In this document: piece after piece, positions 1,125-11,133 of the stretch
Layout of the letters: every line of letters starts with the position of its first letter
How positions within the stretch are numbered: position 1 is the stretch's first letter
Source: an uncultured Planctomycetota bacterium
GTDB lineage: Bacteria; Planctomycetota; Planctomycetia; Isosphaerales; Isosphaeraceae
NCBI GenBank assembly: GCA_963823665.1
Contig: CAWGMQ010000003.1
Coordinates: 1,024,001-1,088,000 of the forward strand
DNA: 64,000 bases
Reading direction: 5' to 3'
Translations under genes and position numbers: made by a program
The notes under the pieces: model-generated
The model's input: only the letters and a program-made list of their open reading frames with translations
The model's database searches: none
What the model was told of the DNA's origin: nothing

Positions 1125-3962
1125 CTACAGAGCTTTTGAACGTTTCCGCCGCTTTTTCGGCAGCGATGGCGCAGGACGGCGTCGGGTCTTTTCCGGCAGG
1201 GCACTCAGGCGTTTCTCGATCTGGTCAAAGTAATACTCAGCCGTGGTGCGCACTTCGACGGGGATATTCTGAAGAAACCGGCGATCGCCCTGATGCAGCG
1301 CCGAGAGGGCTTCGAACCACGGGCGCAAGCGGACGTCGTCACCACGCTCGCGAAGAAAGACGAGCAGGTCGCCTGCGTAGTTCAGGTGCAGAAGAACGGC
1401 GCAGGCGCGGAGCCAATCTCCGTAGGTGTCGTCAGGAAACTGGTGGCCGATAACATCGATGGCCTCGCCTAAGGCGTCTTTGCAAAGGCCCCAGTTCGCA
1501 TCGTATGCAGCGAACAGCGCCCGTTGTAGGTGGAACGTGTCCTTTGACTCACACGGCGCTTTCATCGCTAATGTTTCAAAGGTTCGTCGCGCCGACCGCA
1601 TGTCTCCCAAAAAGTCCCGATGCAGGTAGACGAGGTTTTGAAAAGCAAATTCGTGTGTGCCGTCGATTGCGAGTGCGTTAGCGAAAGCCCTAGCTGCATC
1701 CGAGTATCTTCGCAGGTGGTCGCAATAAAGATTGCCAAGGCCGTTCCACGGATCGACGTCTCGCGGATCGATCTCGATCGCCTTCCGGTACGCCGACTCC
1801 GATTCCTCGAATCGACCGAGATGACTCTGAAGCAGATTGCCCAGGCCAGTCCACGCATAGGCGGATCGTGGATTAATCTCGATGGCCTTCCGGTACGCAG
1901 CCTCCGATTCCTCGAATCGACCGAAATGATCCTGAAGCAAATTGCCCAGGCCTTGCCAGGCAGAGTCGTTTCGCGGATCGATCTTGATCGCGGTCTGGCA
2001 AGCGACCGCGGCCTCCGAATGCAAATCTAGCTTGACAATCAAAACAAACGCCCAGTTATACCACTGCCGTGAGTCCGAGCCTGATTCGGGCGTGAGAGAA
2101 TCTCGAACCTGGCAAACGGCATCAGCACTCAGGGCAGAACCGATCTGAGCTTCGATCGTATCGACAAGCAGTTGCATGGCGTTTTTCCCATCAGCCCTAA
2201 GGAACACTCGATTCCAGTCGTCCAGATCCCCTGCGGACCGCAACTGACCGGTCGCAAGCTGTTTGCGAAACCATCTAAACGCGGCTTTGCCATATTCCGA
2301 TTCATCTCGCCGTCGCGCGTCTAGAATCGACTGAAGAACGGCCCCGATCTTGCCCACACTTAGTTTTCCGGCGATCGCGGCAAGCTTTTCCCGCTCACCG
2401 TGCGTGAACATCTGCCGGTCTCCAAGCACCTCTTCCGCGAATTGCTCCGGTGTTATGTCGATGCTGTCCGGGACGAGGGCGATCAACTTTTCGCGCAAAT
2501 CATTGAACGCTAGAGTCGCCGGTGCGAGTTTCGAGAAATCAATGACTTCTTCCATCTTGCGGCGGGACTCCCCGGCCTTGCACCGCAGCGCATCGAGCTC
2601 GGCGTGGCGGACGAGCTCCTCCTTGTCGACGGGCTTGAGCGTGGAGGCGAGCGCCCTGGCGAGCTGGAATCGGTCCGGGCTGAGGTCGCGTTCGTTCAGT
2701 AGAAGTCGGGCCAGGCGGGGCCGATCCTTTTCGTCGTAGAAGCTCTCGATGAAGCGCACAAGGAACTCGACCTCTCGCCGGTGACGGCGGGACGCGCTGC
2801 GCATCAAGAACCAGACGTTCAAGAATCGCTCGGCGATCTGATAGCCGGCCGACGATTGACCGAAGATCTCGACCTTCTCGACAAAGCCAATCTTCTCCAG
2901 GCGGTCGAGCTGCGCGGAAATACTCGCAACCGGCAGGGCGGTCGCTTCTGAAAGGGCGCGGTCCGTGATCGGCGCCCAGTCATCTGCGATCGCGCTGACA
3001 AGCACTTGCTGCTGCTCGGCGAGTTCCTCAATGCGCGCTTTGTACAGCGGGGTAACCCGGTCGAGCAGGTTTTCCAGGTCGCCAAAAACGCTCGGGGAGA
3101 AATCCTCCGCGTAGAGAAAGAAGAGCGCGACCACGGTGCGCGGATTGCCGCCCGTAAGATCACGGAGGGTTTTGGTCCGTTCCGGGTGGCGCAATACTTT
3201 TTTGCAAACGTCAGCCCTGCCGGTTGCCTCCGCGAGGCTCACCATGAGATCGCGCATCTCGTCGAACGTCAGGGGCTCCAGGTAGCGGATCTTGAAGTGA
3301 TCAAAGAACGCGGCAGCGTAACTCTGCGTTTCCGGAGGCGGGCTTGGGCTGGCGCCGACAACAATCGGACTGCCGCGACGCATGAGCAGCTCACGGAGGG
3401 CGTGCTGCTCGACATCTGCAATCCGTTCGAAGACGAGTTGCAAGTTGTCCACGAGCAGCACAGGCCGCCTGCCGACCCTCGAGGCCTCCTCCTGGAAGGC
3501 GACGAGCGCAGCGCGGGCGGGCAACTCGTCTTTTTTGGCCGTGCCGCCCGTTTGATGTTTCAAAGTACGAACGACGGCGTCGATGCGGTCGCTGGCGGCA
3601 GTGTCGCCCGCACGTTCGGCCGCATCGGCAAGCGAATCGAGGCAGTTCAACCAGAACTTCGACAAGCGATCGACCGAGTATTGTTCCTCCGCGAAGACCA
3701 ACGGCACGAAACGCTCCGAGAGAATCGGGCTCGTCCGTAGCTCGGCGGCGAGCCGCATGAGCAATGTGCTTTTTCCCATGCCGCGCTGGCCGACGATGAG
3801 GTGGTGCTGCGGCCGGCTCTTTGCCTTCTCGGCGGCGATTTCGGTCAGCACTCGCTCGAAAATCGCCTTCCGGGCGACGAACGCCGCGGCGATTTCCGAG
3901 TCTGTAAACCGAACGGGATTATGGAGCGTGAGCCGGCTCACACTGAGCGTGCCAGTATTCAT
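1125..3962 (-). CDS. P-loop ATPase (STAND/AAA-like) - winged helix - TPR protein, 945 aa
   Basis: Walker A GQRGMGKST, Walker B VLLVDN, TGGNPR motif, HTH-like segment (ALSEATALPVASISAQLDRLEKIGFV) and 35-aa TPRs (AWQGLGNLLQDHFGRFEESEAAYRKAIEINP). ATG at 3962 overlaps the upstream stop (ATGA). Confidence 0.85.
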   Translation of the reverse strand: MNTGTLSVSRLTLHNPVRFTDSEIAAAFVARKAIFERVLTEIAAEKAKSRPQHHLIVGQRGMGKSTLLMRLAAELRTSPILSERFVPLVFAEEQYSVDRLSKFWLNCLDSLADAAERAGDTAASDRIDAVVRTLKHQTGGTAKKDELPARAALVAFQEEASRVGRRPVLLVDNLQLVFERIADVEQHALRELLMRRGSPIVVGASPSPPPETQSYAAAFFDHFKIRYLEPLTFDEMRDLMVSLAEATGRADVCKKVLRHPERTKTLRDLTGGNPRTVVALFFLYAEDFSPSVFGDLENLLDRVTPLYKARIEELAEQQQVLVSAIADDWAPITDRALSEATALPVASISAQLDRLEKIGFVEKVEIFGQSSAGYQIAERFLNVWFLMRSASRRHRREVEFLVRFIESFYDEKDRPRLARLLLNERDLSPDRFQLARALASTLKPVDKEELVRHAELDALRCKAGESRRKMEEVIDFSKLAPATLAFNDLREKLIALVPDSIDITPEQFAEEVLGDRQMFTHGEREKLAAIAGKLSVGKIGAVLQSILDARRRDESEYGKAAFRWFRKQLATGQLRSAGDLDDWNRVFLRADGKNAMQLLVDTIEAQIGSALSADAVCQVRDSLTPESGSDSRQWYNWAFVLIVKLDLHSEAAVACQTAIKIDPRNDSAWQGLGNLLQDHFGRFEESEAAYRKAIEINPRSAYAWTGLGNLLQSHLGRFEESESAYRKAIEIDPRDVDPWNGLGNLYCDHLRRYSDAARAFANALAIDGTHEFAFQNLVYLHRDFLGDMRSARRTFETLAMKAPCESKDTFHLQRALFAAYDANWGLCKDALGEAIDVIGHQFPDDTYGDWLRACAVLLHLNYAGDLLVFLRERGDDVRLRPWFEALSALHQGDRRFLQNIPVEVRTTAEYYFDQIEKRLSALPEKTRRRPAPSLPKKRRKRSKAL
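1745..1990 (-). repeat. 105-bp period TPR-coding tandem repeat (2 close copies plus diverged flanks)
   Basis: GCCTTCCGGTACGC...CTCCGATTCCTCGAATCGACCGA...CTGAAGCA.ATTGCCCAGGCC recurs at ~1780-1847 and ~1885-1952. Confidence 0.8.
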
Positions 3963-5137
3963 TTGCCGTGCCTTCGTCGCCAGTATTCGCGAAGCAAAAA
4001 GGAGCGAAAGGCGTAACGTGCGCGTGTCTCCAGCAGGTAGCCGTCGCGCTGCAAAGCGATCAGGAGGCGGGTGAGCTGTTCTCGGACGATATCCGAGTTT
4101 GCTGCCGGCTTGGCCATGAGAATCGCGAGTATCTGATCGTGCGTGCGGCCTTTCGGGTGCTTGCAGAGGTGGCCAAGAATCGCTTTGCACACCGTGGCGT
4201 CCGACGTCGAGAACTGCACTTCGATCCGTTCGTGCCAGGTGTCAAAGTAGGAGAGTTTTGGGGCTCGAGCAGGGAATCGAAAGCCTTCGAAATCGACCGC
4301 TGTTCCGTATCGCGGAGCTCGTGGAAAACCAAATGCAAATGGTAGGCGAGCGGCCAACCGACTCGACGAATGATGTCATCACGCTCGGCCTGCTCAAGCG
4401 CCAGCTCATTCGACTCGCCCAGTTCGATCAGGAACGCGTCGGCCTCGTCGGCAGAGAACGCCTCCAGGGTGAATACCTGGAGGTCGTTGATCAGTTTATG
4501 GAGCTTCTGGTCCTGGACGAAATTGTCGAGGCCGATCGAGCCGAGGAACACCCAGCGTATCTTCTTGCGGAACGTCTGCCGCAGCTCGCGCAGCCAGTGC
4601 AAAATCGCGGTGACCCGGATGCCCATCCTCCGCCTTTTGAAGCGTTAGCAAGAACTCGGGCAACTCGTCGACAGCGATGAGAACGCGGTCGTCGCCACTT
4701 TCGATATTGCGAAAAACGGATTCGATAGCCTTGCGCAAAGTCGAATGCTCCGCATCGGTGGCATCGCCCAGACTTAGCTCGAGTCCAGGTACCTTGATTC
4801 CGGCACCGCCGAGTCGTTGTCGAAACTTGCGGAACGCTTCCGTGCCGCGAGCAATCCACTGGGGTTGGAGCTGGGCATTCGCATGTTCCTCGATGAACTT
4901 TTCCGCGAAAGCGAACTCGTCGCCTTGTCCTTGAACGTTCAGGAAGACAGCCTTTTGCTGGCAAGTGGATTTCCAGGTTTCGCAGAGGCGGAGCACGAGT
5001 GAGATCTTGCCGACGCGCCGGGGCGCAACGAGAAGAATGTTCGCGTTGGCGTCGAGCTCCCGACGAAGCTTCGCCAGAATCTGGGGCCGATCGAAGAAGT
5101 CGTCGCCTTCCACGGGACTGCCAATGATGTTTCTCAT
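3959..5137 (-). CDS. Archaeal-ATPase/AAA-like P-loop ATPase with C-terminal winged helix (~390 aa; two frameshifts near 4625 and 4265)
   Basis: Joined from ORFs 4496..5257, 4060..4626 and 3959..4357: GSPVEGDDFFDR, Walker A APRRVGKIS, Walker B LIAVDELP, WVFLGSIGL, and C-terminal LQRDGYL...YAFRSFLLREYW. Confidence 0.8.
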
Positions 5138-6075
5138 CACTGAATCCCAAGACGCCGAGTCTGCGCCGTCAATATACAAAATTGTATTTCTATGGTTTTG
5201 TATAAGAAAACTGGGAACGGTCCTTCCCTTTGGCATCGGTCCAGTAAGAGCGGGCATAAATGCCAGAATTCACACGATTGTGACGATTGAATCAGCTTCG
5301 TCGAACGAGGAATGTTTGAAGAACAGGATTCCTTCATCGCCTCAGGATCGCATCCTGGCGCGAGCACCGTCTGGTTCCATTCCCGCAGTCGGGCGCGCCA
5401 GGCGGCCGGATCATCGGCGTTCTCCTCGACCACCCAGCGCTGCACCTCGTCGGCCCGGATCGGCAGAAAGCAGCTCATCTCGCTCGGAGCATACTCTCCA
5501 TTTGAACCAAGCTGCTCGATGCCCACCGATTCACCGTCAAATCGCCAGATCTCCTTGACCTGAAGCGCCCGGTAGATCGCTTGACGCTCGATCTCGGACG
5601 GCGATATGTCGATCTCGATCGCGAGATCGGGATTGGGATAGTCGGCGATATCCTGCGACCGCCGTTTCACCGCGTCGCGGTCCCTCGCAAGCTTCTCACG
5701 CAGGAAGTAGTAGCACTGGTCGGCCTCCAAACCGCGCGCAATCTCAGGTCGTTTCCAGGTCGTCTCGCCCGCTGAGCTGCAATCGATGTGGAGATCGTCG
5801 GTGATCGCGGTCACCAACCTCCCGAATCTGTCCTTGAAATGCTCGTGGACTCGCCCCTTCACCATGATCTCAAGGTCCTTTCCGTCGTACGCCAGGAAAA
5901 CTCCTTGGCGCGGATCGATCGCGTCGGAGAGCGCATCGTAGAGCTCCCACGATAAGCCCCGGATCGCGATTCGCTTTTCGGCGGGGGCGCAAGAGGCCGC
6001 TGTGATTGGCGCGCCGGCGGTCGCCACGTCCGGCAGGGCAGATCTTGACGGGGCGCTGGTGATTGTTGACATCAT
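5137..6075 (-). CDS. Uma2 (DUF820) family PD-(D/E)xK-fold putative endonuclease
   Basis: SWELYDAL, LAYDGKDLEIM, GLEADQCYY, PDLAIEIDIS, IYRALQVKEIWRFDG. The last ~70 codons are AT-rich and probably non-coding read-through; the true end is likely near 5340. Confidence 0.85.
   Translation of the reverse strand: MMSTITSAPSRSALPDVATAGAPITAASCAPAEKRIAIRGLSWELYDALSDAIDPRQGVFLAYDGKDLEIMVKGRVHEHFKDRFGRLVTAITDDLHIDCSSAGETTWKRPEIARGLEADQCYYFLREKLARDRDAVKRRSQDIADYPNPDLAIEIDISPSEIERQAIYRALQVKEIWRFDGESVGIEQLGSNGEYAPSEMSCFLPIRADEVQRWVVEENADDPAAWRARLREWNQTVLAPGCDPEAMKESCSSNIPRSTKLIQSSQSCEFWHLCPLLLDRCQREGPFPVFLYKTIEIQFCILTAQTRRLGIQ
5173..5204. promoter_or_regulatory. AT-rich palindromic operator/promoter upstream of the ATPase pair
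   Basis: Perfect inverted repeat TATACAAAA (5173-5181) - 14 nt - TTTTGTATA (5196-5204), with a nested ATACAA-aa-TTGTAT. Lies 36-67 nt upstream of ATG 5137. Confidence 0.55.
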
Positions 6076-6287
6076 TCCGTCTCCAAGTCGCAGGACGATT
6101 GGTTGCGATTGCCATTTCGGCCCAGCGCGGCCGTCCCGCGCACCAATTATAGCCGAACTGGTGCGCCGCGAGCACGAGCCCGCAGCGGAATCGCTCGACC
6201 CGCGGTCTCAACGCGCCGTACAATCGCGGCGGGCCCGGAGTCCACGGCGCTCGGAAAGACCCCCCCTCCCCTGAAATGTGATCCAAG

Positions 6288-7529
6288 ATGCTTGCCGACC
6301 TACTCTCTGACGCTCTGAAGAAGTACGATCCGGCAGATCCCCGGTACGCGACTGACGTGGTCGAGCGGGTTCTTTCGGCCGCGCGCGCGAGCGGGGCCAG
6401 CGACGTGCATCTCCAGCCGAGCGCGCTTGGCCTCGAGCTTTCCTGGCGGATCGACGGCGTGTTGCAGGCGGTGACGTCGATTCCGGCCAAGGTTGGCCCC
6501 AACATCGTGGCGCGGCTCAAGGTTCTCTCGGAGCTGCTCACCTACCGGACGGACGTCCCGCAAGAAGGGCGGATCAAGGGGGCGCCCGGCGAAGTGGAGA
6601 TGCGGGTGAGCACGTTCCCCACGCTGTTCGGCGAGAAGGCGGTGGTTCGTCTGTTCGCGGCCCCCGGGCTTTTCCTGCGGATCGAAGAGCTCGGCCTGCC
6701 CGGGGAAGTGAGCGACGGCCTGGGCCGGATGCTCGGCGAGACTTCCGGAGCGATCGTGCTCGCCGGCCCTTCCGGCAGCGGCAAGACGACCACGATCTAC
6801 GCTTGCCTGCGCGAACTAGCCGCGCGGTCGAAGGGCCAGCGCAGCCTGGCGACGCTCGAAGACCCGATCGAGGCCGTCGTGCCGGGCGTGGCCCAGGCCC
6901 AGGTGAACCTGGCCGCCGGCCTCACACTCGAGTCGGGCCTCAAGTCGCTGTTGCGACAAGATCCGGAAGTGATCGCCATCGGTGAGATTCGCGACCGGGC
7001 CACCGCAGCGATCGCCTTGCAGGCCGCACTGACCGGCCACTTGATCCTCACCACCTTTCACGCCGGCAGTGCCTGCGAAGTGATCGGCAGACTGCTCGAC
7101 ATGGGGATCGAGCCCTACGTTGTGCGCAGCGGCCTCCGCGCGGTGGTGGCCCAGCGCCTGGTGCGGCGGCTGTGCTCGTGCTCGAAGCCCGCCACTACCC
7201 CCGACGAGCTTCTCGGCCTGCCGGTCGAAACCGCTCGAGTGCCGCGGGGCTGTGAGCTCTGCCGGGGCACAGGGTACCGCGGCCGCACGGTGCTCGCGGA
7301 ATTACTGCTTCCCGAACACGAGGAGATTGCCCGGGCGATTCTGGCCCAATCGGACGTACGCAGACTCGAGCAAGTGGCGCTCTCGGCCGGGATGGTCGAT
7401 CGCTGGGCGCGTGCCTGCGCGGCAGTTCAAGCCGGGCTGACTTCCCCAGCAGAAATTCGCCGCGTACTGGGCGTCGGCAGCGCCGCGTCGAGCGCGCATG
7501 GGAACCGGCCGGTCGCGGAGCCGGATTGA
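6288..7529 (+). CDS. GspE/PilB family secretion/pilus assembly ATPase (short form without N-terminal domain)
   Basis: ASDVHLQP, RIDGVL, PQEGRI, Walker A GPSGSGKTT, TLEDPIE, LRQDPEVIAIGEIRD, TGHLILTTFHA, Zn motif CSC...CELC. Confidence 0.93.
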   Translation: MLADLLSDALKKYDPADPRYATDVVERVLSAARASGASDVHLQPSALGLELSWRIDGVLQAVTSIPAKVGPNIVARLKVLSELLTYRTDVPQEGRIKGAPGEVEMRVSTFPTLFGEKAVVRLFAAPGLFLRIEELGLPGEVSDGLGRMLGETSGAIVLAGPSGSGKTTTIYACLRELAARSKGQRSLATLEDPIEAVVPGVAQAQVNLAAGLTLESGLKSLLRQDPEVIAIGEIRDRATAAIALQAALTGHLILTTFHAGSACEVIGRLLDMGIEPYVVRSGLRAVVAQRLVRRLCSCSKPATTPDELLGLPVETARVPRGCELCRGTGYRGRTVLAELLLPEHEEIARAILAQSDVRRLEQVALSAGMVDRWARACAAVQAGLTSPAEIRRVLGVGSAASSAHGNRPVAEPD

Positions 7530-7587
7530 CAACCTCGGACATTTGTGGTGAGATAGCCATTGCACAAATGTCGTAGGGAAGGGGGCA

Positions 7588-8677
7588 GTGAGCGTGATGC
7601 ACGAGGGCGAGCTTGGTGCGAGACGGGCTGGGGCCATCACGATCGAGCAGTTATTCGCTCTCAATGAAGAGATCCGGGCGCTGGTTCGAGCGGGGGTGCC
7701 GCTGGAGCGCGGGCTGCTCACGGCCGCGCGAGATCTGCGGGGGCGTTTGGGGCGGATCACGGGCGCTCTCGCGGGTCGTCTGAACCGCGGGGAGAGCCTG
7801 GTGCAGGCCCTGGAAGCGGAGAAGCAGGTCCTGCCGCCGCTCTATCGCGCGGTGGTCGAGGCGGGGGCGAGGTCCGGCCAGTTGCCGGTTGCGCTCGAGG
7901 GCCTGGCCCGCTATGTGCGCGGGTATTCCGAGGCCAGGGCCACGATCGGGCTGGCCCTCTGGTACCCTCTGGTGGTTCTGAGCCTGGCCTACCTGCTCTT
8001 TGTGGGGCTGGTGCTGGTGATCGTGCCGCGGTTTCTTGGCGCGTTCGAATCGCTCGGTCTTTCATCGCCGGCAGCGCTGCGCTGGCTGAGCGTGGCCGGG
8101 AAATCCGCCGATTACTGGTGGCTGGCCGGGCCGATCGCACTCCTGCTGCTGGCGATCGCGTGGGTCCGCTCGGGGGCGGCGGCCAGGTTCCAGTCGGCGT
8201 CGTGGACATGGCTCAAGCTTTTCCCCTGGATGCGGTCGATCCTGACCAATTACGAGGGTGCCAACTTCTGCGAGCTGCTCGCGCTGCTGCTCGAGCATGA
8301 AGTGACTTTTCCAGATGCCCTCGAGCTGGCTGGCGAATCGACCGGTAACCCGCGGCTATTGCGCGGCGCTCTCTCTCTCGCAAGCGATCGAGAGCGGTCA
8401 GTCCGCATCTGAGGCGCTCGAGAAAATCGACCGAGCGGCGTTCCTGCCGATGCTGCGCTGGGTCCTGGCGACGGGGCAGGAGCAAGGCTCGCTTCCGCGT
8501 GCCTTGCGAAACCTGGCCGGGCACTACCGCAGACGTGCCAAGTATCTGGCCGAGAAGCTCTCGGTGTTCTTACCGACGTTCATCATGGTGGTGATCGGGG
8601 CGAGCGCAACCTTGTTTTACGCACTTGCACTTTTCATCCCGATCATCAACCTGCTGGGTCAACTTTCCATTAATTGA
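7588..8677 (+). CDS. GspF/PilC family inner-membrane platform protein 1 (frameshift ~8380)
   Basis: RAGVPLERGL, GESLVQAL, VEAGARSGQL, ALWYP; the second repeat GQEQGSLPRAL continues in ORF 8315..8677. Confidence 0.85.
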
Positions 8678-8721
8678 AGCTAGTCGACGCGAAGCCGGCG
8701 ACGGTGCGCCTCGGGGGGGCG

Positions 8722-9789
8722 ATGCCTGACTCAAACGGACAAGACTATTCGAGTGCTCGACTGAGCGGGCCCGACGCGGCCGAGCTGTCGAGCCAGATTG
8801 CCTCCGTCACTCGCGCGGGGCTGCCGTTGGCCCAGGGCCTCGCCGCGCTCTCGGCCGAGCTGCCGCGCGGCGGCCTGCGCCGATCGATCGAAGACCTGGC
8901 CAGGGCGCTGAACAAGAGGTATGCCGCTCGAAGAGGCGGTGAAAACCCGTGAAAGCAGCTTGCCGCCGCACCTGCGCGGGCTGCTGCTGGCGGGACTACG
9001 CTCGGGCGAGCTGGGTGACTTGCTCGATCGTTTCTATGAATATCTGAATATCGGAGTCGAGTTGAAGCGGAAGCTCTGGCTCTCACTCGCCTACCCGGCG
9101 CTCACGGTGGCAGCCGCGATGGCGCTCCTGCTGTTCGTCTGCCTGTTTCTGGTCGCGCAATTCGAGACGATTTACCGAGACTTCGGCATCCCGTTGCGGT
9201 CCTTCACGACCGTGCTGATCGTCTTTTCGCACGTTGTTTCGCGTACGTTCGTTCCGCTGGGAGTATTCGCGGGCGTGATTCTGTGTGTCTGGCTCGCCGG
9301 TCGCGTTTTCCTGCCGTGCGCAACCCGGCGCAGCATCGCGTGCAAGCTTCCGCTCCTGGGGCGCGTTTGGCGCTCGATGTCGCTTGCCGAGTTCTGCCAC
9401 TTGCTCGCGCTGCTCGTGAACGGGCGGATTCCGATGGCGGAGGCCCTTCGGCTGACGGGTCAAGGAGTCGAGGATGCCTCGATCGACCTGGACTGCCGGC
9501 TGATGGCCCAGCGCATCGAGCTGGGTGAGTCGCTTTCGCGGTCGATGGCGGCGCGACATCGGTTCCCGATCGGCCTGGCCCGATTGCTTCGGTGGGCCGA
9601 AAACCAGAAGAGCGTGCCCGAGGTCCTGCACATGGCCGGCGCGATGTTCGAGGCCCGCGCCCGGCGCAGTCGACATTCGTGGGCATCATCCTCAATTTCC
9701 TGTGCGTGCTCATGGTCTTGTGCATGATCCTGATCGTGCCGGCGCTTTTCACGCCGCTCATCACGTTGATCAGCAGACTATCGGGTTAA
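8722..9789 (+). CDS. GspF/PilC family platform protein 2 (frameshifts ~8920 and ~9665)
   Basis: RAGLPLAQGL, AGLRSGELGDLL, SLAYP, KLPLLGRVW, GESLSRSM. Joined from ORFs 8674..8952, 8921..9727 and 9592..9789. Confidence 0.82.
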
Positions 9790-9813
9790 GCTCGCCCTTC
9801 AGGGGAAACCGCC

Positions 9814-11133
9814 GTGGTACGAGGATCAGTTGAGCCTGCTGGCAGCGAAAAGAGCTCCTGCGGCGAAGTCGTGACGCCCGCGAACGGCGAAGGAGCGCCC
9901 GAGCTCGAGCTGGAATTCGCTGACGCAGAAGTCGCACGCCTGGCGCGCGGCAATCCGTGGCGGCTCTCCCACCTGATGTATGCGGTCGCCGTCGTGGCGA
10001 TCTTGCTCTGGCTGGGGATCGTCGTGGCCGGCTCGGTTGTCGCCGTGCTGCTCATCGGCGTGGCTCTGTTGCTCATCCTGTTCGTCGCCGCGATGGGAAG
10101 CATGGCGATCCTGGCGTGGGGGTCGGCGACAAAGCAAAATGCGCTTTTGCATATCCTGGCGATCGCTGCGGAACGAGGAATGCCCCTGGCACCGGCAGTT
10201 GCTGCGTTCGCCGACCAGTACCGCGGACTGAGGCACCGGCGAGTGATGCACTTGGCCGCCCGCTTGAACTGGGGCGCAACTCTTCCAGACGCGCTCGAAG
10301 GCTCGCGCTCGCTCGTGACGCGCGACGCGACGCTCCTGGCGTGGGTGGGGCAGGGCGCCGGCAAGCTCCCGAAGGCGCTCCGAACCGCCGCCGAATCGCG
10401 CTCGAGCCAGCTTCCGATCTGGACGAGCATCGCGTCGCGACTGGCTTACATCCTCGTGCTCGTGCTCGTCATGCAGATCATCAGTGGATTCATCCTTTAT
10501 TTTATCGTGCCCAAATTCGAGTCGATCTTCAGAGACTTCAATCTCCCGCTGCCGCGGGTCACGATCGCGGTCATCGAGGCGGCCCACTATTTCATCGCGT
10601 TCGCACCGGTGACGTCGTTCATTCCGCTTGCCGAGGTGATCCTTCTGATCTTCTTGCCTATTTCGTTCCTGAGCTGGGGAAATTACAGCGTGCCCGTCGT
10701 CGACCGATTGCTGGGCCGGCGCCATATGGCACTGGTGCTGCGATCACTGTCTCTCTTCGTCGAGGGAGGCAAGCCGATCGCGCAGGGGCTCGCGCTGCTC
10801 GCCGCGCATTACCCGACCTTCTGGTTTCGTCGCCGGCTGCGCGGAGCCGACAAGTACGTTCGAGGAGGCGTCGATTGGATCGAAGCGCTCAGGCGCCACG
10901 GCGTGATCCGGGCCGCGGACGCCGCCGTTCTGACTTCAGCCGAATCGGTCGGGAACCTGGCCTGGGCCCTCGAGGAGCTTGCGGAAACAGCAGAGCGCCG
11001 GCTTGCCACCCGGATTCAGCTCGTGATTCAGACATCCTTTCCACTCGTTGTGATCATCCTGGGCGTTCTGGTGTTTATCCTGGCGACGGCCTACTTTCTG
11101 CCGCTGGTTACCCTGATCCAGAAACTGACTTGA
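9814..11133 (+). CDS. GspF/PilC family platform protein 3 with extra N-terminal TM hairpin
   Basis: ERGMPLAPA, GATLPDAL, FIVPKFESIFRDFNLPLPRVT, AESVGNLAWAL, AYFLPLVTLI. Confidence 0.88.
   Translation: MVRGSVEPAGSEKSSCGEVVTPANGEGAPELELEFADAEVARLARGNPWRLSHLMYAVAVVAILLWLGIVVAGSVVAVLLIGVALLLILFVAAMGSMAILAWGSATKQNALLHILAIAAERGMPLAPAVAAFADQYRGLRHRRVMHLAARLNWGATLPDALEGSRSLVTRDATLLAWVGQGAGKLPKALRTAAESRSSQLPIWTSIASRLAYILVLVLVMQIISGFILYFIVPKFESIFRDFNLPLPRVTIAVIEAAHYFIAFAPVTSFIPLAEVILLIFLPISFLSWGNYSVPVVDRLLGRRHMALVLRSLSLFVEGGKPIAQGLALLAAHYPTFWFRRRLRGADKYVRGGVDWIEALRRHGVIRAADAAVLTSAESVGNLAWALEELAETAERRLATRIQLVIQTSFPLVVIILGVLVFILATAYFLPLVTLIQKLT

Follow-up and report, generated by a model that had tools for sequence, protein, structure and literature searches.

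We describe a two-gene cassette in a 64,000-nucleotide stretch of DNA (hereafter the window) from contig CAWGMQ010000003.1 of an uncultured planctomycete of the Isosphaeraceae. The genes, A (3959–5137) and B (1125–3962), lie on the reverse strand behind a palindromic operator of their own, and encode paralogous signal transduction ATPases with numerous domains (STAND). Together they form a real, widespread and apparently undescribed two-STAND unit that is likely autoregulated. Our favoured explanation, which we hold to be evenly balanced between right and wrong, is that B represses the operon and pairs with A as a nucleotide-driven conflict switch, of which the copy in the window has a broken A. 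The conflict role would probably be directed against phages or plasmids. A conflict role is what best fits the mobility of the cassette, the turnover of its likely sensor and the decay of A, and a repressor with no site but its own promoter implies a further output.

Gene A is read from an ATG at 5137 to a TGA that overlaps the ATG of B, giving an ATGA stop/start overlap at 3959–3962 (reverse strand) that is evident in the sequence and had been recorded in an earlier note on this DNA. If intact, A would be a stand-alone STAND/Orc-like ATPase of about 390 amino acids ending in a winged helix; the window copy is broken into three pieces, with open reading frames (ORFs) spread over three frames. 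Gene B is uninterrupted from 3962 to 1125 and encodes 945 amino acids comprising a STAND ATPase with Walker B DN and a GGNP motif, a winged helix, a helical region, an array of tetratricopeptide repeats (TPRs) and a helical cap. The earlier note's account of B (its length, Walker B DN, GNP motif, winged helix, helical region and C-terminal TPRs) and its reading of Walker B DE in A (within VDE) were both correct.

The two genes form an obligate pair in a fixed order. In genome loci anchored on B, A lies directly upstream in 69 of 69, with an ATGA at the stop of A in 60, of which 59 are in frame with B. A metagenome search anchored on A gave 80 loci; 7 have no room for a further gene (room being at least 188 nt), and B comes next in all 73 that do. 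Within the window's family A occurs in 15 of 121 genomes, and at the same-family loci other than the window itself, some of them quite distant, B is next to A in 15 of 15. The earlier note had proposed a coupled module, and in every set the genes were adjacent. Pairwise identities of A and of B are also correlated (rho 0.81, 53 loci). There is no third conserved gene: 559 flanking ORFs fell into 462 clusters. At one locus (L016:3640-3727), a short palindromic repeat element lies between the stop of A and the start of B in place of the usual overlap.

The cassette is also widely spread. A profile of A finds 1118 clusters (at 50% identity) with E ≤1e-30, the best 150 being 234–448 residues long, and A is present in eight plasmid records; the viral contigs and phage genomes searched contained no relative of it. 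In a tree of A, made by a quick method, Acidobacteriota, Myxococcota and one planctomycete are nested among Verrucomicrobiota on well-supported branches. Because phyla nest within one another in this tree, it suggests transfer of the cassette between phyla. Database labels for relatives of A and B are just "ATP-binding protein" or "TPR protein". No named system in PADLOC, NCBIfam or Pfam fits A or B, and nothing specific came from PADLOC or NCBIfam, in line with the earlier note, which had not recognised a named system. No strong full-length match to a PADLOC-listed system such as PDC-S01, PDC-S27 or MADS was obtained: the best E-values are 9e-7 (mad8) among 60 A proteins and around 1e-3 for protein P0001, mostly over the P-loop. 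We found no description of this pair in the literature, where existing STAND classifications might already cover the family.

Contrary to the earlier note, which had called the two P-loop ATPases unrelated, A and B are distant paralogues (hhalign probability 95%, E 3.5e-8, 311 columns). Both have the layout of STAND and Orc/Cdc6 proteins: a P-loop nucleoside triphosphatase (NTPase), a helical domain with a GxP motif, and a winged helix. Pfam ATPase_2 scores 23–27 bits for both query proteins, below the curated cut-off of 33.2, and their top structural matches are the archaeal proteins PAB2304 (2qen) and SSO1545 (2fna). ATPase_2 (PF01637)-type proteins were reportedly placed by Leipe and colleagues in 2004 in the MNS clade of STAND. 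A predicted model of the intact A of relative L011 (mean confidence score pLDDT 91) matches 2qen at Z 25.5 and 2fna at Z 25.1, with root-mean-square deviations of 3.5–3.8 over about 330 residues; matches at lower Z are plant resistosomes, Orc/Cdc6 (2qby, 2v1u; Z 16.7–18), Avs5 and Avs3. The core of B matches 2qen at Z 23.4 and 2fna at Z 20.9, and a Foldseek search with the whole chain has as its top match the STAND-TPR protein 6mfv, with SAMD9 and Apaf-1 also found. SSO1545 and PAB2304 resemble A and the core of B in consisting of NTPase, helical domain and winged helix with no effector, whereas B adds the helical region, TPRs, cap and Walker B DN; sequence identity to them is 12–17%.

The two families differ in their catalytic motifs. 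Those of A are APRRVGK[TS]S and IDE, in which PRRxGK[TS]S and DE are invariant, with a GWP motif in the helical domain. Those of B, whose NTPase begins no more than about 15 residues from the start of the protein, are Walker A GQRGMGKS (G58, G61, G63 and K64 being invariant), Walker B LLVDN, and GGNP at residues 271–274. Asparagine follows the Walker B acid in 50 of 50 aligned members and in most wider homologues. In AAA+ chemistry, asparagine at this position leaves ATP bound and poorly hydrolysed; because of this residue, B should bind ATP and be poor at hydrolysing it.

The winged helix of B (about residues 311–390; 2793–3032, reverse strand), with the recognition helix ISAQLDRL, is the predicted operator binder; Pfam families of MarR type match it, MarR_2 in 16 and MarR in 12 of 50 members. 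The helical region occupies residues 411–630 and is followed by the TPR array (about residues 631–800; 1563–2072, reverse strand), which contains a 105-bp tandem repeat at 1729–1991 (2.5 copies, 80% alike), and by the C-terminal helical cap (about residues 801–925; 1188–1562, reverse strand). Neither helical region nor cap matches a Pfam family, and the ESM Atlas gave no usable match for residues 400–640.

Comparison of 106 complete B proteins found the core in all of them, the cap in 92 and TPRs in 83, and the cap is kept even where TPRs are missing. The TPR segment ranges in length from none to more than 800 residues. Its 35-residue units are closer to one another within a protein (0.60) than between proteins (0.47), and unit pairs at least 70% identical make up 28% of those within a protein and 1.4% of those between proteins. 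Variation among units peaks at positions 2, 3, 6, 10, 11, 32 and 34 and is concentrated on helix-A positions; we take these variable positions to face the binding groove. Fungal NLR (nucleotide-binding, leucine-rich-repeat-like) sensors have internally conserved repeats, as described in PMC4986451, and the pattern in B is similar at lower identity. At the other extreme is a minimal form, found at Bacteroidales-like loci (L121, L122, L129, L132, L135, L137, L144, L146 and L178), in which B is about 295 residues long and consists of NTPase and winged helix only, with Walker B DD, no TPR and no cap. Genes next to these minimal cassettes include integrase-like, excisionase-like, TOTE primase, WYL and DUF262 genes.

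Neither A nor B carries an effector domain, as the earlier note had observed and as Pfam scans of family members and of uncovered segments agree. It is possible in principle that A and B form a sensor and scaffold for an effector encoded elsewhere in the genome and recruited in trans through the cap or an oligomer surface. The lack of an effector in cis and the conservation of the cap (92 of 106, even without TPRs) are in keeping with this, as is the existence of trans-encoded effectors in other bacterial STAND systems, which PMC8195603 describes. However, the minimal B proteins have no cap, and a dedicated unlinked partner is less likely because the cassette crosses phyla as two genes only. 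We regard a trans-acting effector as very unlikely. A itself is otherwise stand-alone: the fusion of a ParA-like NTPase and TPRs ahead of a complete A domain in protein P0155 (991 residues, one contig) is a singleton among longer proteins, and could be either genuine or the product of a read-through.

Upstream of A, the family has an operator of two or three tandem 16-bp palindromes with the consensus WATACA-N4-TGTATW. In the window there are two, at 5173–5204, of which the promoter-proximal copy is perfect and the distal copy degenerate. A tandem pair with no more than 5 mismatches in 20 is found in 59 of 61 regions upstream of A, compared with 8 of 1220 shuffled sequences and none of 505 regions upstream of neighbouring genes; a de novo palindrome score of at least 22 is reached in 116 of 159 upstream regions and in 1 of 503 controls. 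The core CA-N4-TG is mostly kept, and the outer bases are clade-specific (TATACA or AATACA, ACAACA, ACGTCA, GATWCA). Minimal TPR-less pairs have weaker palindromes scoring 18–19, or 22 on the Segatella copri plasmid. An exact match to the tandem pattern also occurs between genes in a large AT-rich viral contig (L189:2501-2530), where neither an A nor a B gene lies closer than 2.5 kb; it could be chance or a decoy, and is probably chance in AT-rich DNA.

The operator lies variously upstream abutting the −35 box, within the spacer, or across the −7 box of Bacteroidota, and this varying position over the promoter suits a repressor site. TT[GT]AC follows the operator at 29 of 59 sites. In the window, sequence and comparison of upstream regions place a −35 hexamer, TTGACG (5167–5172, reverse strand), directly against it; the expected −10 (5149–5144) is TGGGAT, in place of the TACAAT that the close relative L011 carries 6 nt ahead of the ATG, and a promoter scan of this region of the window found no consensus promoter. 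We infer that the promoter layout is leaderless. Inverted repeats over the operon's own promoter are a feature of autoregulated toxin–antitoxin and abortive infection (Abi) modules, and here the palindromes point to self-repression by the winged helix of B. The conserved operator also strengthens a suggestion of the earlier note, that the pair might act like Orc1/Cdc6 DNA binders.

In the 16.5-Mb host genome, the window operator is the sole tandem site at up to 3 mismatches, and a single perfect palindrome occurs only 3 times. B is thus without an obvious regulon, and the cassette needs another output. This bears on the proposal that A and B are a self-contained, signal-responsive transcription module, with MalT- or IniR-like logic split between two genes: B would sense a ligand with A as its ATPase partner, and the purpose would be to regulate host genes or physiology, with no role in conflict. 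Much about the cassette resembles a regulator, namely the strongly conserved operator and MarR-like winged helix, the mostly metabolic or housekeeping neighbours, and 6mfv as the top whole-chain match of B; the mycobacterial regulator IniR also has an SSO1545-like ATPase domain, according to PMC5760070. Against it stand the few sites in the genome and the lack of conserved flanking genes, and an accessory element that is costly to keep would better account for the patchy spread, the carriage on plasmids and how often A decays. On balance we consider a transcription module unlikely.

We now turn to the decay of A, beginning with the window copy. Codon 45, in Walker A (5003–5005, reverse strand), encodes isoleucine where 60 of 60 intact relatives have threonine (44) or serine (16), so that the motif reads GKI instead of GKT or GKS. 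Two frameshifts follow: at 4620–4624 (reverse strand) the gene is 2 nt short compared with five aligned relatives, at a G/C run, and at 4256–4263 (reverse strand) it is 1 nt short compared with five aligned relatives, in a TTTTGGGG homopolymer run. A short-read contig (run X1, covering 4228–4469 at depth 2.6) aligns across the second indel with 0 gaps against the window; it has 28 letters on one side of the indel, and the rule for bridging was 31. Short-read contigs reach this indel and neither the first indel nor codon 45.

Taken together, the gap-free short-read contig at the second indel and the T45I change in Walker A make it fairly probable that the window A is a true, decaying pseudogene and not merely an assembly error. 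The contrary explanation for the window, that both indels are errors of long-read assembly and the cassette is functional there, is improbable in our view and yet has some substance. Both indels are at homopolymer-like runs, there is a proven assembly indel nearby at 5356, and A is otherwise off at 4 of 56 conserved columns, as compared with 2–3 in its closest relatives. Weighed against this are the short-read contig (borderline, given its 28 flanking letters), the T45I change, and the degenerate −10 box and distal palindrome. In the window the cassette is probably no longer expressed and in decay, B remaining as a repressor; because its A is broken, this copy makes a poor test subject.

Across the family, a scripted check found 119 of 133 spanning loci intact. 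Lesions were then curated by hand, merging two duplicate pairs, adding four loci that had been excluded for lack of room, and omitting L172, in which B runs off the locus. On these counts, damage is confined to A at 12 loci (the window, L012, L025, L039, L043, L055, L060, L094, L116, L143, L158 and L164), six of them through in-frame stops, and to the core of B at 3 (L130, L171 and L182), and affects both at a further 3 (L076, L127 and L174); the excess of lone A lesions has a binomial p of 0.035. The A of L116 has a stop that is absent from L113, which is 99.8% identical.

Lone loss of A is thus four times as frequent as lone loss of the B core, as might be expected of an addiction or selfish module of toxin–antitoxin type, in which A would be a toxic ATPase, B would neutralise it and repress the operon, and the TPRs would be an accessory trigger. 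A bicistron with an autoregulatory pair of inverted repeats is also what AbiE has (PMC7319586), and in Bacteroidales the minimal pairs without TPRs are located within mobile or defence islands. This reading is nonetheless quite unlikely: an intact A stands beside a disrupted B at the three loci with B-core damage, and neither protein has lost its complete STAND fold or its Walker A motif, unlike typical antitoxins.

In the conflict reading that we favour, the winged helix of B would hold the operon promoter off, one dimer to each 16-bp palindrome. A foreign protein in the TPR groove, or some other signal in the forms without TPRs, would switch B; repression would then be lifted and A and B would co-assemble. 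As the catalytically intact and costlier partner, A would deliver the output itself, with no further enzyme needed. Most likely it would form an oligomer that burns ATP or coats DNA, in the manner of Orc/Cdc6, TnsC or MuB, and that stalls the cell or the invader. A bolder version of the reading is possible, though we doubt it: that the cassette is a very widespread immune receptor whose sensor STAND represses its own operon in a sequence-specific way, with recombining TPRs as the trigger and a paralogous effector-less STAND, in an ORC (origin recognition complex)-like hetero-oligomer, as the weapon, acting by DNA coating or ATP drain. If this were true, it would be a prokaryotic sensor–helper NLR pair that has its own means of transcriptional amplification and acts without an enzymatic effector. 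More generally, the cassette would reveal the role of stand-alone SSO1545-like STAND ATPases, would tell whether an NLR-like switch can work without an enzyme effector, and would connect immune sensing to the ancestry that STANDs share with DNA-binding Orc/Cdc6 proteins. It is directly testable because it is compact (about 2–4 kb), has a defined operator, exists naturally in minimal and sensor-bearing forms, and is present in cultured strains.

Several observations weigh against a conflict switch of this kind. No effector activity was identified: neither the 106 complete B proteins nor the 120 best among 1425 longer homologues have a GT4, HEPN or other enzyme domain. Groove positions are hypervariable in TPRs generally and are no proof of immune selection. 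The TPR-less B proteins of about 295 residues still pair with A; because they do, the TPRs are not the core of the mechanism, and the TPR sensor proposed in the earlier note is dispensable. Variants of the operator track variants of the B recognition helix by clade, a correspondence that is confounded by shared ancestry, and A too has a winged helix. The lesion tally mixes real mutations with assembly errors and was curated by hand. A persists with an interrupted B at three loci, including a finished Methylomonas plasmid (L182), and because of this A alone is not obviously lethal. Lastly, most copies of the cassette adjoin housekeeping genes. Defence-type Pfam families occur at 3 of 42 loci and credible PADLOC neighbour matches at 3 of 61 (L074, L121 and L129), in neither case with a matched background rate.

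The defence-island context of the cassette is weak. The Pfam scan covered 233 of the 364 ORFs within 4.5 kb at the 42 loci, and its three defence-type loci have PIN, HEPN-DUF499, and nucleotidyltransferase–HepT plus PIN. A HEPN-DUF499 ATPase gene of BREX-related systems lies about 2 kb upstream of one cassette (L026:1170-4508). The PADLOC scan covered 150 of the 187 nearest ORFs at the 61 loci, and matches to UvrD, cysteine desulfurase, GlgB, two methyltransferases and an ABC transporter were discarded as housekeeping. Four annotated plasmid loci were viewed: two are defence-like, one has large NTPase-type genes after the pair, and one is uninformative. On the Segatella copri plasmid a WYL gene is directly upstream of the pair and DUF262 genes are also present, and on a Clostridium estertheticum plasmid DUF3800, GIY-YIG and integrase genes are downstream of it. 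On a Moraxella osloensis plasmid (L179:3826-13007) the pair is followed by co-oriented, close-set genes for a 1248-residue protein and a long NTPase-containing protein.

The cassette was also compared with known systems, among which its working would be that of a STAND/NLR switch combined with DNA binding of the Orc kind. The Npun2340/2341 family, which corresponds to Pfam AAA_35 and comprises tandem gene pairs, gives weak matches in 48 of 60 A proteins (best E 4.7e-8). Two matches to it lie in tandem on one contig of a genome from the same phylum. There is none in the window's genome, and it is outside the top 25 families for B. PMC8195603 names this family within the MNS clade. Its proteins are described with N-terminal adaptor or effector domains, which the cassette does not have.

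The closest precedent is nSTAND2, a two-gene counter-invader operon in which both genes encode STAND NTPases and a hetero-multimer is proposed (Kaur et al., 2021, PMC8195603). It shares with the cassette a mobile bacterial operon of two adjacent STAND genes, one with impaired motifs; peculiar to nSTAND2 are an inactive copy with eroded NTP-binding motifs and a GT4 or HEPN effector, and an arginine finger in both copies. In contrast, B keeps its Walker A, no effector is fused, and the residues before strand 5 are ND in A and YD in B. The nSTAND2 profile was not listed for P0001 or, with all 12 families shown, for the 60 A members, and was outside the top 25 of 55 families for 50 B members.

Antiviral STAND (Avs) and bacterial NLR-like proteins share with B a central STAND NTPase and a C-terminal TPR sensor, and their C-terminal repeat superstructure is present in 83 of the 106 complete B proteins and in the window copy. 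Unlike Avs, the cassette lacks an N-terminal effector, includes a second STAND gene that is also without one, carries a DNA operator, can dispense with its TPRs, and gives no PADLOC Avs match. Lee et al. (2026, PMC13581612) deal with the Avs families and sort NTPases into 589 clades.

Orc1/Cdc6 heteromers (2qby, 2v1u) resemble the cassette in combining AAA+ and winged helix, in their paralogous subunits and in their repeated DNA sites; the cassette has no origin or replication context, its site overlaps its own promoter, and it has a TPR sensor fusion. An Orc/Cdc6 pair with a disrupted Walker B appears in PMC10853773, where a KAP NTPase is the third gene; this is absent from the cassette and the candidate was rejected. 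AbiE, a type IV toxin–antitoxin and abortive infection system, is likewise a bicistron in which a winged-helix partner represses its own promoter via paired inverted repeats (PMC7319586), but its proteins are unrelated to A and B and the cassette has no nucleotidyltransferase toxin. MANTIS (Gao_RL; bioRxiv 10.64898/2026.09.23.753747), a dual-ATPase system, needs methyltransferase and helicase-nuclease genes, and the cassette has no conserved third gene. BREX-related and ParA-based systems were compared and do not fit.

At the window locus itself, Pfam finds AAA_16 and TPRs in B and, weakly, ATPase_2 in A, and the adjoining genes match ankyrin and Uma2. The GC content is 0.59 in the A–B block, 0.63 in the rest of the window, and 0.62–0.69 in 500-nt bins across the pilus/secretion operon at 6001–10500; the earlier note was right that the block is less GC-rich than the flanking operon, by a modest margin. 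The ankyrin and Uma2 genes that it named as neighbours are both present. A congener is syntenic with the window over 5335–8994 and has other genes in place of the cassette and the ankyrin gene. Because Uma2 is backbone shared with this cassette-less congener, it is ruled out as the cassette's nuclease; it lies beside 1 of the 42 Pfam-scanned loci.

Uma2 (5335–6075, reverse strand) appears in the window to run on to 5137, which is an assembly slip: short reads of runs X1 and X2 show an extra G after 5356, and the Uma2 of the congener stops near 5335. Farther along, type II secretion and pilus F-type genes (7588–9727, forward strand) are split across frames in the ORF list, probably through more assembly indels. 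At the same chromosomal site the congener (L193:2589-5300, G029:C9) has a gene for a 904-residue TIR-NTPase-TPR protein, about 5 kb from the equivalent of the cassette's site, and a small antitoxin-like gene. These genes raise the possibility that a variable defence site lies downstream of Uma2.

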